Source: a virus (taxonomy: Duplodnaviria > Heunggongvirae > Uroviricota > Caudoviricetes). From it: 4,384 bases of DNA. Location of the stretch: the IMG/VR virus record IMGVR_UViG_2778261418_000017; one strand, 5' to 3'. Below, one piece after another: positions 1,951 to 4,384 of the stretch; within the stretch, counting starts at the first letter, position 1, and every line of letters begins with the position of its first letter. The notes under the pieces are model-generated. The model saw only the letters and a program-made list of their open reading frames with translations. It was not told the DNA's origin and did not search any database. The translations under genes were made by a program, and so were the position numbers.

Positions 1951-1976
1951 AAAAACAAAACCCGCCGTAGCGGGTA
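1951..1976 (-). terminator. Rho-independent terminator downstream of the HTH-ImmA gene
   Basis: On the minus strand the sequence reads ACCCGC-UACG-GCGGGU followed by UUUUGUUUUUU: a GC-rich 6-bp stem with a UACG tetraloop and a T-tract (plus coordinates 1961-1975 stem-loop, 1951-1960 tract). It lies immediately 3' of the stop at 1980-1982. Confidence 0.7.
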
Positions 1977-1979
1977 TGC

Positions 1980-3083
1980 TCAAACAATCTGAAAAATATT
2001 TCTTGGATTTGTAATAGGTCGATTGATGGAGAACAACTCACGAATTAAATCTTGACTCAAGCCAGTTTTCATAAGAATGCTTAACCAAGTTGCATCATCC
2101 AGCATGTCAATCGCTTCGGACAGCATACTTGGTTCTTCGGGGCGCAAAAGTTCATCACCAGGTTCAACTCTCGTGTACCCTCTAGAATTAAGATGCATAT
2201 AGCCAGTTCTTGCCTGTTCCTGGGTCAATAGTCCTAATGCACTGGCTCGATAAATACACATTTTAAGGCTAATTTTCCATCTAAGCTTAAATTCAACCAG
2301 AGCACTCCAATCGAATTGCTTACCTCGTATTCGTGGAAATTCTTTAATGAAAGATAGCCTAGGAACCAATAATGCGCTAGAAAAGTGATCAGCTTGTGAT
2401 TCCGTAAGTTTATCACCAGTAGTTATGCCCTCATGCATTACTAAATGCCCTAACTCATGACCTAAATCAGAGCGAAATCTACATATGCTTTTTTTTACAT
2501 TGTTCCTGATAATAACAGGCCTGTTATTGTGAACAGTGAATGCATCAACACGATCATCGACTCCCGTAACATGCGCAACGATTACCCCCAAACTCTCCGC
2601 CAATTTCACCATTGATGATATAGGGCCAAGACCTAGATTCCATGCACGGCGACAATCTTCTGCCACTCGCTCAATATCATTCGGGGTAAGTAATTCAGTT
2701 CCGGGGTGCTCTGGTATGTTGACATCAGGGAATTCGATTTCACCTTCAACAGCAGAAATTATAATATTAAGAATCTCAGCCCTGGCCAAGACACTATTAG
2801 TCAGCGTTTGAGTCCTGGACTTCTTACTCCGAAAATGGCAAACATCGCTTTCCAGAGCATATTTTCGCTCAGTAAATAGAAAATCGGACTTAATCATAAG
2901 AGCTGAGGCTATTAACTCCAAGCATCGCTCTGATGGCCTAAATCCCTTCTCCAATTTGCTAACGAATTGCTTTGTTTTGCCAATTTTTTCGGCCAACTCT
3001 TCACATGAAAGCCCAACAGCCATTCTTGCTAGTTTGAGCTTATCGCCTCGATACTCAGTGAAGTTATTCACCTGATGTTCCAT
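1980..3083 (-). CDS. Fusion protein: N-terminal XRE/Cro-C1-type helix-turn-helix DNA-binding domain plus ImmA/IrrE-family (COG2856, M78-like) zinc metallopeptidase domain with C-terminal extension
   Basis: 367-aa ORF. Residues about 14-70 (LKLARMAVGLSCEELAEKIGKTKQFVSKLEKGFRPSERCLELIASALMIKSDFL) follow the canonical XRE HTH pattern. Residues 209-213 are HELGH (plus 2445-2459), in the context SDLGHELGHLVMHEG typical of ImmA/IrrE peptidases. Shine-Dalgarno-like GAGCAG precedes the ATG at 3083-3081. AT-rich codon usage. Confidence 0.85.
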   Translation of the reverse strand: MEHQVNNFTEYRGDKLKLARMAVGLSCEELAEKIGKTKQFVSKLEKGFRPSERCLELIASALMIKSDFLFTERKYALESDVCHFRSKKSRTQTLTNSVLARAEILNIIISAVEGEIEFPDVNIPEHPGTELLTPNDIERVAEDCRRAWNLGLGPISSMVKLAESLGVIVAHVTGVDDRVDAFTVHNNRPVIIRNNVKKSICRFRSDLGHELGHLVMHEGITTGDKLTESQADHFSSALLVPRLSFIKEFPRIRGKQFDWSALVEFKLRWKISLKMCIYRASALGLLTQEQARTGYMHLNSRGYTRVEPGDELLRPEEPSMLSEAIDMLDDATWLSILMKTGLSQDLIRELFSINRPITNPRNIFQIV

Positions 3084-3714
3084 TACTGCTCACATCCAAA
3101 TTTTTATCCTTCGTACGCCGACGAAGAGACACCTTATTAATCTCCGCTTCGCCAGGGAGTGTGTTACCGTCAAGGGACATAAGTGGCATTGATGCTGTAG
3201 ATTGATGAGAAACCATACTAATCTGAGCACCATAGGTATTAAACCCAACAAGAGCCACCTCCCAACGAGGCAGTGTGGACTCTAATTCACCATCTCCCTC
3301 TTCGGATAAAAATGGCTCCGCTATGACTCGCCATGTAATATCTTGCTCAGCCTCAACATCACCAAACAATGAAAGCTGCTCATGCTCTACTTTATTTCGA
3401 CGCAGGCGATGTTTCTTTTTGGGGTTATTAATGCAATCTTTGGTAAATTGTAGCGGAACTTTATTTAAAGCAACTACATAGTCCAACCCCTTGGAAATCA
3501 TCTTAAGACCAGGAATTGCGCCTTCATTTTGAATAAGATGGTTTCTGACCCAATCATAAGCCCTTACACCTTCAGACCAGTTGCTGTCTAATACGTGCTT
3601 ATGATAGTACAACTGCTCAAGTACGTTAGCGATCTCCGCCAACAACTGGCGAACATTGCTTTCAGCAAGATAAGGTTGAAATTCCCAACAAGGAGCTAAC
3701 TGATTTTCATTCAT
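3064..3714 (-). CDS. Hypothetical protein, 216 aa, no recognisable family; first gene of the two-gene cassette
   Basis: Long uninterrupted ORF, antisense only to a short shadow ORF. ATG at 3714-3712, TAA at 3066-3064, overlapping the downstream HTH-ImmA start by 20 nt. Contains a basic stretch PKKKHRLRRNK (residues 98-108, plus 3391-3423) flanked by acidic segments. I recognise no catalytic motif. Confidence 0.7.
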   Translation of the reverse strand: MNENQLAPCWEFQPYLAESNVRQLLAEIANVLEQLYYHKHVLDSNWSEGVRAYDWVRNHLIQNEGAIPGLKMISKGLDYVVALNKVPLQFTKDCINNPKKKHRLRRNKVEHEQLSLFGDVEAEQDITWRVIAEPFLSEEGDGELESTLPRWEVALVGFNTYGAQISMVSHQSTASMPLMSLDGNTLPGEAEINKVSLRRRTKDKNLDVSSNGTSGE

Positions 3715-3744
3715 TTCAAGTTTCGCTTTTTTTAGAATTCGTAA

Positions 3745-3778
3745 ACCTTATATTTTCGCATTTTCCTGTTTTTGTCAA
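3745..3778 (-). promoter_or_regulatory. Putative sigma70 promoter for the two-gene cassette
   Basis: On the minus strand a perfect -35 TTGACA (plus 3773-3778) is followed by A/T-rich candidate -10 hexamers (AAATAT at 17-nt spacing, or TATAAG at 20 nt), about 40 nt upstream of the ATG at 3714. The -10 assignment is ambiguous. Confidence 0.4.
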
Positions 3779-3793
3779 CCAGACTAATGCATA

Positions 3794-3811
3794 AACCCGC
3801 CGAAGCGGGTT
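3794..3811 (-). terminator. GC-rich stem-loop (UUCG tetraloop) downstream of hok; probable terminator or 3' stabiliser
   Basis: Plus sequence aacccgc-cgaa-gcgggtt. On the minus strand this is AACCCGC-UUCG-GCGGGUU followed by UAUGCAUU, a moderately U-rich tail. It is nearly identical to the hairpin at 1961-1975. Confidence 0.5.
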
Positions 3812-3879: not shown

Positions 3880-4035
3880 TTACTCCTCAGGTTCGTAAGC
3901 TGTGAAGACAGCGACCTCCGTCTGGCCGGTTCGGATTCGTACCTCGCAGAGGTCTTTCCTCGTTACCAGTGCCGTCACTATGACGGTTAAACAGATGACG
4001 ATAAGGGCGATTAACATCGCCTTTTGCTGCTTCAT
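3880..4035 (-). CDS. hokD: Hok/Gef-family small membrane toxin (type I toxin), HokD/RelF-like
   Basis: 51-aa translation MKQQKAMLIALIVICLTVIVTALVTRKDLCEVRIRTGQTEVAVFTAYEPEE matches E. coli HokD as I recall it: single transmembrane helix, conserved Cys, acidic tail. Strong Shine-Dalgarno AAGGAG lies 9 nt upstream of the ATG at 4035-4033. The ORF track shows an in-frame 19-codon upstream extension (ATG at 4092). Confidence 0.85.
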   Translation of the reverse strand: MKQQKAMLIALIVICLTVIVTALVTRKDLCEVRIRTGQTEVAVFTAYEPEE

Positions 4036-4156
4036 AGCCTGCTTCTCCTTGCCTTTCGGCACGTAAGAGGCTAACCTACATTTGTGAGACATAGATTGGG
4101 CCTCAGATTAATGTTAAGCGTCCTGCAAGACGCGTAATGTTAACTGGGGCTTTTCT

Positions 4157-4193
4157 CTATCTGCCTTTTGGTGTTCATGCCTGAGGCAGATAG
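4157..4193. promoter_or_regulatory. 9-bp perfect inverted repeat (ctatctgcc ... ggcagatag) in the hok upstream leader; candidate RNA structure or operator
   Basis: ctatctgcc at 4157-4165 is the exact reverse complement of ggcagatag at 4185-4193, with a 19-nt spacer. A second overlapping imperfect hairpin is tgaggc-agata-gcctca at 4182-4198. It sits where the hok mRNA 5' regulatory region would be. Confidence 0.3.
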
Positions 4194-4246
4194 CCTCAAG
4201 CACCCGCAGCAATTCTACTTAACTCTCCTTTTCCCGCAAACCGTTT

Positions 4247-4384
4247 TTATCCCCAGCGGCAAATCGAATACACCACCAGCGCCACCGCCATCGCAATTCC
4301 TACCGTTGTGAATGCTTCAGGCCAGGTCATCGTAAAATATCCTCCGCGTTTATCAGTCCGTTTCGCTTCAGGTAGACCATCGCC
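4247..4384 (-). CDS. Partial or small ORF ending in a hydrophobic C-terminus; possible 27-aa membrane peptide (MTWPEAFTTVGIAMAVALVVYSICRWG)
   Basis: It is the only frame open at the window end on the minus strand, with stop TAA at 4249-4247. An internal ATG at 4330-4328 is preceded by a strong Shine-Dalgarno (GGAGGA, 9-nt spacing). The frame stays open upstream to the window edge, so it may be the 3' end of a longer gene. The C-terminus is not that of RelE. Confidence 0.3.
   Translation of the reverse strand, partial: GDGLPEAKRTDKRGGYFTMTWPEAFTTVGIAMAVALVVYSICRWG

Follow-up and report, generated by a model that had tools for sequence, protein, structure and literature searches.

The two-gene cassette between hok and rem in the window (the whole 4,384-nucleotide stretch of DNA that was analysed) is, judged by sequence, a RosmerTA toxin-antitoxin/phage-defence module of the Vmi480/Vmi470 type, and one that standard defence-finding tools already recognise. 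The PADLOC/DefenseFinder definition of RosmerTA calls for an RmrA component, an RmrT component and an adjacent, co-oriented operon, and all three are present. Two minus-strand open reading frames, a 216-aa frame at 3064-3714 (rmrT) and a 367-aa frame at 1980-3083 (rmrA), lie with the toxin gene first and the start of rmrA running 20 nt into the end of rmrT, and the pair shares one promoter and one terminator. The initial annotation had correctly described two co-oriented, overlapping genes, and had proposed from them an 'undescribed defence or TA-like module' with one member that it could place in no family. The TA/defence-type part of that proposal stands. The novelty does not, as the PADLOC search that it recommended returned a known system, RosmerTA, and full-length matches to the PADLOC RmrT and RmrA models, together with the link to Vmi480, a pair with Vmi470 known since 2015, rule out an undescribed system. 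Taken as a whole, the cassette is very probably a RosmerTA-type TA module belonging to the Vmi480/Vmi470 subtype, which a lambdoid prophage bears in its nin region as a moron.

The 216-aa protein, which the initial annotation could place in no family, does fall within one, a small family of proteins of ~200 aa. It fits RmrT model PDLC03929 over its full length (E 3.5e-25, residues 7-206 on model positions 5-192 of 198) and also matches phrog_5786 (E 4.8e-83); its family includes close homologues of Vmi480, and PDLC03929 is matched by 53/53 members of that family, the best at E 3e-72. Pfam and NCBIfam searches with the protein gave no match, and no HTH was found in it with either; likewise, no HigB/RelE similarity of this first gene appeared in Pfam, NCBIfam or PADLOC. 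The protein is acidic (pI 5.45) and has no transmembrane or hydrophobic segment (over 19 residues the Kyte-Doolittle average peaks at 0.95), which rules out a membrane toxin like the RmrT of phage Kita. It may be described as a putative soluble toxin of the Vmi480-type RmrT subfamily, although its toxicity is presumed through a Vmi480-like toxin to which it has only 25-28% identity.

The downstream protein combines HTH_3 (residues 16-62) and Peptidase_M78 (176-281) domains in Pfam with an intact HExxH (HELGH at 209-213), bearing out the XRE HTH-ImmA/IrrE peptidase fusion recognised earlier. It matches PADLOC RmrA model PDLC03943 (E 3.7e-105, residues 11-349 on model positions 2-341 of 370) as well as 13 further PADLOC RmrA models. 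Matches to PADLOC capP (E 1.9e-14) and capH (E 1.6e-5) are partial, domain-level and far weaker than those to RmrA, and with no CBASS genes in the window the CapH/CapP regulators of CBASS were set aside. The spr1629 family repressor/antitoxin model NF052239 scores 154.5 bits, under its curated cut-off of 335, and the match is not an equivalog. The spr1630/spr1629 system of Streptococcus pneumoniae resembles the window pair in its HTH plus M78 antitoxin architecture, with the ClpX-essentiality link reported for RmrT-type toxins, but it is a Gram-positive system and the likeness is drawn from the antitoxin. The pairing of the two families is constant: in 8/8 toxin-family representatives an RmrA-type gene with HTH and Peptidase_M78 domains (348-384 aa) lies downstream on the same strand. 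The representatives occupy diverse mobile elements and chromosomal sites, and the pair also occurs outside prophages.

The same architecture could be read as an ImmR/ImmA- or IrrE/DdrO-like switch, in which cleavage of a repressor by the HTH-peptidase governs prophage induction or a stress regulon, with the 216-aa protein as regulatory partner instead of toxin. ImmA, IrrE and CapP do share the M78 peptidase domain, as in the capP match above, and one distant family member adjoins a CI/S24-type repressor in a P22-like prophage. With the HTH fused to the peptidase, however, there is no separate gene for a repressor substrate, and the cassette lies between hok and rem in the nin region, outside the immunity region. 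Moreover, homologues of the upstream gene are lethal when expressed alone, and the occurrence of the pair outside prophages likewise argues against such a switch. Finally, the cassette is absent from at least 65% of otherwise similar prophage junctions and therefore stands outside the core phage regulatory circuit. A switch of this kind is very improbable, and an ImmR/ImmA module of the ICEBs1 type in particular was rejected given the fused HTH, a neighbouring gene without an HTH and the nin-region location.

Experiments on the Vmi480/Vmi470 subtype come from the Vibrio mimicus pair, of which Vmi480 is lethal alone in E. coli, Vmi470 rescues, and vmi470 alone is undeletable; both genes are carried on the mobilisable genomic island MGIVmi1 (Luo et al. 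2015, PMC4671572). What ties the window pair to Vmi480/Vmi470 is a set of primer matches and the gene layout, with a V. fluvialis pair (P0036/L005) as proxy. Primers of Luo et al. 2015 map at the homologous V. fluvialis positions (20/24, 30/36 and 17/22), and the V. fluvialis member shares the vmi480/vmi470 layout, including a 5-bp gap and an upstream resolvase. Through this proxy the family pattern of a ~200-aa toxin followed by a ~360-aa HTH-Zn-peptidase is found. The window RmrT has 25% identity to the V. fluvialis Vmi480-like protein (E 8e-16), and the window RmrA 46% identity to the Vmi470-like protein (E 5e-121). The window pair and Vmi480/Vmi470 (~200 aa and ~362 aa) are thus alike in toxin and antitoxin families, toxin-first order and tight linkage, and differ in that one resides in a Vibrio island and the other in a lambdoid prophage, in the 5-bp gap as against the 20-nt overlap, and in the high divergence of the toxins. 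In E. coli E101, the prophage TA E101_02645/E101_02644 is homologous to Vmi480/Vmi470 (33% and 42%) and makes clpP essential (bioRxiv 10.1101/2020.05.25.114553). Transitivity through Vmi480/Vmi470 places this TA in the same family as the window pair, which it further resembles in being prophage-borne in E. coli and in having a domain-less toxin with a downstream partner. The E101 proteins (WP_001179380.1 and WP_000481765.1) were absent among the retrieved E. coli variants and family clusters, and residue 46 is Thr in none of those variants; ClpP dependence of the window allele may be supposed by analogy.

Protection against phages has been established for RosmerTA with other toxins. The RosmerTA of E. 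coli OLC-716 (system SG158) protects against phages, and a delta-rmrA strain was unobtainable (bioRxiv 10.1101/2022.05.11.491447). Like the window pair, it comprises two genes, toxin first, with a ~370-aa HTH plus Zn-peptidase antitoxin in an enterobacterial host; the two RmrA proteins have 29% identity (E 5e-35), with the HExxH and a downstream E-x-x-A-D-x-F aligned. The OLC-716 toxin, in contrast, is a 239-aa protein of PDLC03935 rather than PDLC03929, and no relationship between the two RmrT proteins was detected by BLASTP (E 8.8) or hhalign (probability 1.4%). Phage protection was shown for OLC-716, whereas defence by the window subtype is suggested by analogy. Similarly, the RosmerTA of Gordonia phage Kita, whose toxin depolarises the membrane, protects E. 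coli against phages, though narrowly (PMC10440598). This phage-borne system likewise pairs an RmrA-type ImmA-protease antitoxin with a toxin of no known domain, but the two toxins differ: a membrane-localised C-terminal region is predicted in that of Kita, and the window RmrT has no hydrophobic segment. PD-lambda-2 of the E. coli pangenome, which defends against lambda-vir and in which toxicity came from the HTH-peptidase itself (PMC9519451), shares the Xre-HTH/peptidase fusion. It differs in having three genes (HigB-like, HTH-peptidase and P4-antitoxin-like), whereas the window cassette has two, with neither a HigB-like nor a third gene.

Whether the RosmerTA pair serves defence must be weighed against pure addiction, that is, retention of the prophage or island by post-segregational killing with no anti-phage role. 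The searchable literature yielded no phage-protection experiment for the Vmi480-type toxin subfamily, and direct experiments on these toxins consist of toxicity and neutralisation assays only. The residence of vmi480/vmi470 in a mobilisable island, the discovery of the E101 homologue via clpP essentiality rather than phage assays, and the direct neighbourhood of hok/sok would all suit addiction. Nevertheless, RosmerTA with the same RmrA architecture protects against phages in two independent studies. The cassette also occupies variable accessory prophage slots, near defence-type genes in sister prophages (SIR2, O55:H7), and the V. fluvialis pair adjoins a reverse-transcriptase/SMC-type ATPase module. 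Addiction and defence are, moreover, not mutually exclusive. A role confined to addiction is accordingly unlikely.

Given these parallels, a working model of the defence module can be outlined. With a sigma-70 promoter and an intrinsic terminator of its own, the cassette can be expressed from the repressed prophage. RmrT, a soluble protein of ~24 kDa, would be lethal if made alone, as are its homologues, and RmrA, with its XRE-HTH and M78 Zn-metallopeptidase domains, would neutralise it and should, as in homologous systems, be undeletable beside the toxin gene. Control of the toxin may also depend on host ClpXP, as reported for relatives; among Pectobacteriaceae, essentiality of rmrA and clpX is confined to RosmerTA-bearing strains (bioRxiv 10.64898/2025.12.09.693261). 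Phage infection might then disturb this control and free RmrT, and the cell would be stopped or killed before phage release, an abortive infection of the sort suggested by RosmerTA with other toxins. Such abortive infection would shield both the lysogen population and the prophage.

The control regions of the cassette are consistent with an independent transcription unit, as the initial annotation had held. The promoter (3750-3778, minus strand) was read from the sequence as a -35 TTGACA (3778->3773), a 17-nt spacer and a -10 AAATAT (3755->3750). A consensus promoter scan called nothing, this arrangement being sub-consensus and below the scan threshold; yet in the ET881 copy, which lies in an unrelated prophage context, homology to the window begins exactly at the -35 box, and GGTTGACAAA is kept upstream of distant toxin-family members. 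A GGTTTAC motif (3741-3747, minus strand) lies downstream of the GGTTGAC -35 box at a distance of 32 nt, close to the start of transcription, and may form one half of an RmrA operator. The combination TTGAC-N27-GTTTAC, with a fixed start-to-start spacing of 30-32 nt, recurs at 7/12 family loci (mean 0.0025 and maximum 1 in 2,000 shuffles), and the sequence between the two motifs is unconserved. No palindromic operator was found in the cassette promoter, where a direct GGTT[G/T]AC repeat is present instead. On this motif conservation, the HTH of RmrA probably represses the operon at the conserved GGTTGAC...GGTTTAC element overlapping the promoter. At the other end, a terminator scan identified an intrinsic terminator at 1950-1975 on the minus strand, consisting of the stem ACCCGC-TACG-GCGGGT followed by TTTTGTTTTTT; it lies 3' of the second gene (1975->1960 plus the T-run), and the same stem stands 3' of rmrA in three different prophage contexts.

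The chemistry of the toxin invites a more specific and more speculative proposal. The AF2 model of RmrT has a pLDDT of 82. Residues 172-216 make up a disordered tail at the C terminus, and three residues, D43, E110 and R129, are near-invariant across the 53-sequence alignment. Vmi480-type RmrT might be an enzyme with a restriction-endonuclease fold but divergent catalysis, organised around D43, E110 and R129, checked by RmrA and host ClpXP, fired when a phage perturbs proteolysis or RmrA, and encoded by an operon autoregulated via GGTTGAC-N25-GGTTTAC. The PD-(D/E)xK catalytic motif, D...(D/E)xK on beta2/beta3, does not appear in the 53-sequence alignment: beta2 position D78 is variable, beta3 reads V-P-x-[RKQ]-F and lacks a conserved acidic residue, and D43, E110 and R129 fall outside the beta2/beta3 motif positions. 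The proposal as a whole is quite doubtful. If true, this reading of a nuclease fold under two layers of proteolysis would give a RosmerTA toxin of the Vmi480 subtype its first assigned mechanism, and would be the first account of how an M78-peptidase antitoxin works.

The surroundings of the cassette indicate how it has travelled. Pfam, PHROG and RNA matches agree with the flank layout given at the outset, with hok (PF01848) and sok RNA (RF01794, 121.7 bits) on one side and a rem-like ORF (phrog_1212), a DUF968/ydfU-like gene and RusA on the other. hok/sok, a classical addiction module, directly adjoins the cassette. The suspicion of compositionally foreign DNA was also justified, as GC is 0.413 in the cassette against 0.52 in each flank, and GC3 is 0.35-0.37 in its genes against 0.50-0.65 in adjoining genes. 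The expected presence/absence polymorphism at the hok-rem junction is plain among 5,426 complete E. coli genomes: 237 carry the cassette, and 3,519 have an empty junction, where a synthetic site with one hairpin copy is matched unbroken (799-800 of 800 nt in one piece, best identity 98.9%). In the deposited phage genome collection there was no match to the cassette DNA or to the toxin protein, and carriage is therefore documented only in prophages. For annotation, the consequence is immediate. The pair is present in about 4-5% of complete E. coli genomes, labelled only 'hypothetical protein' and 'helix-turn-helix domain-containing protein', and such pairs can safely be renamed RosmerTA (Vmi480/Vmi470-type) toxin-antitoxin/defence modules.

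Alignment to the empty hok-rem junction defines an inserted block of 1,835 bp at 1976-3810 (equivalently 1958-3792), the edges of which are an 18-nt duplicated hairpin. At the upstream edge of the insert stands the second copy (3793-3810, minus strand), a direct repeat 17/18 identical to 1958-1975 and the terminator hairpin resident on the hok side; the empty site of E24377A has a single copy. Transposon-like insertion with target-site duplication was rejected, since the 18-nt repeat forms a terminator hairpin whose stem the cassette also carries in unrelated contexts, and recombination at hairpins reads better than transposition. Other nin-region positions in prophages also hold the whole unit, -35 box through terminator. 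The cassette neatly illustrates a promoter-to-terminator moron that passes from one nin-region slot of lambdoid prophages to another by exchange at terminator hairpins. In the O55:H7 sister prophage, a SIR2 gene adjoins the cassette.

The two-gene cassette lying between hok and the rem-like gene is recognisable by sequence as a RosmerTA system of the Vmi480/Vmi470 subtype. Its 216-aa protein (rmrT product, 3064-3714, minus strand) corresponds to RmrT (PADLOC PDLC03929, E 3.5e-25) and its 367-aa HTH-peptidase fusion (rmrA product, 1980-3083, minus strand) to RmrA (PDLC03943, E 3.7e-105; 13 other RmrA models match too). Given that both PADLOC matches are full length, the module is not the undescribed defence or TA-like system that the initial annotation had suspected, although its gene calls were right and the finding is real. 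Millman et al. (bioRxiv 10.1101/2022.05.11.491447) introduced the name RosmerTA for a Zn-peptidase antitoxin with a toxin of unknown function, a delta-rmrA mutant being unobtainable in that study, and Ernits et al. (PMC10440598) define it as diverse toxins, each paired with an RmrA protease antitoxin. The window proteins were compared with the tested E. coli OLC-716 proteins, taken from the supplementary table of Millman et al.: the RmrA proteins are homologous and align at their catalytic motifs (29% identity, E 5e-35), whereas the toxins lack similarity (BLASTP E 8.8), match different PADLOC sub-models and belong to families that reach a probability of 1.4% in profile-profile comparison. The remaining interest lies in biochemistry common to the whole RosmerTA family, rather than in the window locus.

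An exhaustive search of 1.84 billion representative proteins with the toxin profile returned no more than 59 clusters at E <= 1e-3, nearly all of 195-225 aa, from Enterobacteriaceae, Vibrio, Aeromonas, Pseudomonas, Photobacterium and Pseudovibrio; members are all annotated as hypothetical, and all 53 full-length members match PDLC03929. One 206-aa Pseudomonas member (P0148) is named 'alkylated DNA nucleotide flippase Atl1' by JGI/IMG, for which its cluster representative offers no Pfam support, and the name is probably a mis-annotation. After the toxin gene, 8 of 8 representatives examined carry a same-strand HTH + Peptidase_M78 gene of 348-384 aa, and the settings of the pairs include prophages (lambdoid, Mu-like and P22-like), an island with an integrase, another with a resolvase and next to a reverse-transcriptase/SMC-type ATPase module, and plain chromosomal sites. 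At L005 5883-8600, a Vibrio fluvialis locus encoding the toxin-family protein P0036, the Vmi480-like pair adjoins genes for an RVT_1 reverse transcriptase, an SMC/AAA ATPase and a 222-aa protein; these neighbours resemble a defence module, of the retron type or otherwise RT-associated, in a resolvase-bearing island. A distant family member at L017 4744-6603 has an integrase and genes for DUF5677 and nuclease-like NA-iREase1 proteins as neighbours, a setting suggestive of a small defence island.

Functional expectations come from homologues. Luo et al. (PMC4671572) showed V. mimicus vmi480 (198 aa) to be lethal to E. coli and to be neutralised by vmi470 (362 aa, HTH + Zn-peptidase), a gene that is not deletable alone. 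The V. fluvialis P0036 locus has the same layout (199 aa, 5-bp gap, 361-aa partner, upstream resolvase), the primers of Luo et al. map at homologous positions in it (20/24, 30/36 and 17/22 matches), and the window proteins are 25% (toxin, E 8e-16) and 46% (antitoxin, E 5e-121) identical to its pair. Given this link and the reported toxicity and rescue, the toxin-antitoxin behaviour of the subfamily is supported directly by experiments on a homologue and is predicted for the window allele by homology. In E. coli E101, clpP becomes essential through a prophage toxin-antitoxin system with a reported identity of 33%/42% to Vmi480/470, an effect that is suppressed when the toxin carries a T46S change (Rousset et al., bioRxiv 10.1101/2020.05.25.114553). 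In Pectobacteriaceae, rmrA and clpX are essential only in RosmerTA-carrying strains, according to a 2025 preprint that cites the same clpX link in S. pneumoniae (bioRxiv 10.64898/2025.12.09.693261). The E101 accessions were not found among the E. coli variants and toxin-family clusters retrieved, and the ClpXP link therefore reaches the window allele by family membership only.

By analogy, RmrT would be lethal, RmrA would neutralise it and be indispensable, and ClpXP would be needed to tolerate the module; at the sequence level, the window offers an autonomous operon, in which the toxin gene comes first and overlaps the antitoxin gene by 20 nt, and an intact metalloprotease motif. The operon may be autoregulated through the RmrA HTH, and phage infection could release the toxin, with abortive infection as the possible outcome. 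With a lower probability, the pair may serve purely as an addiction module. An ImmR/ImmA-like switch governing induction is unlikely: HTH and peptidase are parts of one fusion protein, the cassette is located in the nin region, the pair is found outside prophages too, and homologous upstream genes are lethal. There is also a candidate operator. In the upstream regions of distant family members, GGTTTAC follows GGTTGACAAA (the -35 box) at a start-to-start spacing fixed at 30-32 nt, an architecture present in the window (3741-3781, minus strand) and at L005, L007, L008, L009, L010, L013 and L015, with variable sequence in between. TTGAC-N27-GTTTAC occurs in 7 of 12 Vmi480-type rmrT loci (shuffle mean 0.0025), with a one-base variant in the O55:H7 copy, and the loci sharing the architecture come from very distant hosts. 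It is a plausible operator for the RmrA HTH, overlapping the transcription start.

The RmrT AlphaFold2 model, built on a 53-sequence alignment, is confident (pLDDT 82, pTM 0.72), with two long helices, a three-stranded sheet, a helix, three more strands and a C-terminal tail disordered from about residue 172. Foldseek found no significant match for it in the PDB and viral models, nor did sequence profiles in the PDB and Pfam. D43, E110 and R129 are nearly invariant in the family, the 53-sequence alignment shows no conservation at the canonical D...(D/E)xK positions, and a nuclease-like fold is a weak lead. RmrT is acidic (pI 5.45) and, in contrast to Kita RmrT, which depolarises the membrane (Ernits et al., PMC10440598), has no hydrophobic segment.

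The cassette is compositionally distinct, with a GC of 0.413 against 0.52 on either side and a GC3 of 0.35-0.37 against 0.50-0.65 in neighbouring genes. RmrA bears Pfam HTH_3 and Peptidase_M78 domains with an intact HELGH motif; RmrT has no Pfam or NCBIfam match. The initial annotation thus described the sequence correctly. The terminator that it proposed was recovered by the scan as a consensus intrinsic terminator downstream of rmrA (minus strand 1975->1960, then a T-run). The promoter scan upstream of rmrT detected none, and the proposed promoter emerges instead by eye, as a perfect TTGACA (3778->3773), a 17-nt spacer and AAATAT. Its best support is E. coli ET881, where a copy of the pair (88%/92% identical) lies within a hok-less nin region and homology to the window starts exactly at the -35 box and stops just past the terminator hairpin. 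What moves is therefore a unit of promoter, both genes and terminator, a classical moron.

The cassette occurs in 237 of 5,426 complete E. coli genomes (9 at >=99% identity, 224 at 90-95%, 5 at 80-90%), about 219 of which keep the hok-rem context, and a more distant variant (toxin 42%, antitoxin 56% identity) lies upstream of hokD in 31 further genomes. A synthetic empty junction, made by joining the window flanks with a single hairpin copy, matches as one piece in 3,519 genomes (identity up to 98.9%). Alignment of the E24377A empty site to both window junctions defines an exact 1,835-bp insert bounded by a duplicated 18-nt hairpin, AAACCCGCCG(T/A)AGCGGGT. Since the same hairpin stem accompanies the cassette in other contexts, insertion is best read as exchange at similar terminator hairpins, and an origin of the repeat as a transposition footprint was rejected on the same ground. 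Two of 239 copies are in large plasmid records (NZ_CP195449.1, 195 kb; NZ_AP026904.1, 238 kb), which may be phage-plasmids or plasmid-integrated prophage segments. Some strains (E. coli PRO_A-1420/1429) have an IS200C-family transposase at the hok-rem junction instead of the cassette. In O55:H7, which has a 94%-identical variant of the cassette, an additional hypothetical gene of 86 aa separates rmrA from the rem-like gene (L003 2587-2847), so that sequence past the cassette terminator differs from the window.

Every long ORF of the window is on the minus strand, in the transcription order hok, rmrT, rmrA, rem-like (phrog_1212), DUF968/ydfU-like and rusA. The hok gene (3880-4035; Pfam HOK_GEF, E 3e-23), with an in-frame 70-aa extended ORF reaching 4092, and sok RNA (4030-4205; Rfam, 121.7 bits) form a complete type I locus (3880-4205, minus strand) that adjoins the cassette, and two toxin-antitoxin modules thus stand side by side. 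Neighbouring nin-region slots of sister prophages hold other accessory or defence-type genes, namely a SIR2-family gene adjoining hokD, a Ser/Thr kinase gene next to Q and an opposite-strand alpha/beta hydrolase (L003 5429-6388 in O55:H7 RM12579, L002 1-270 in E24377A, L001 8764-9537 in 14EC001); the region behaves as a cargo hotspot. Upstream of hok/sok, an unlisted 27-aa ORF (4244-4327, minus strand), MTWPEAFTTVGIAMAVALVVYSICRWG, has a strong GGAGG Shine-Dalgarno 8 nt upstream and looks like a small single-pass membrane peptide.
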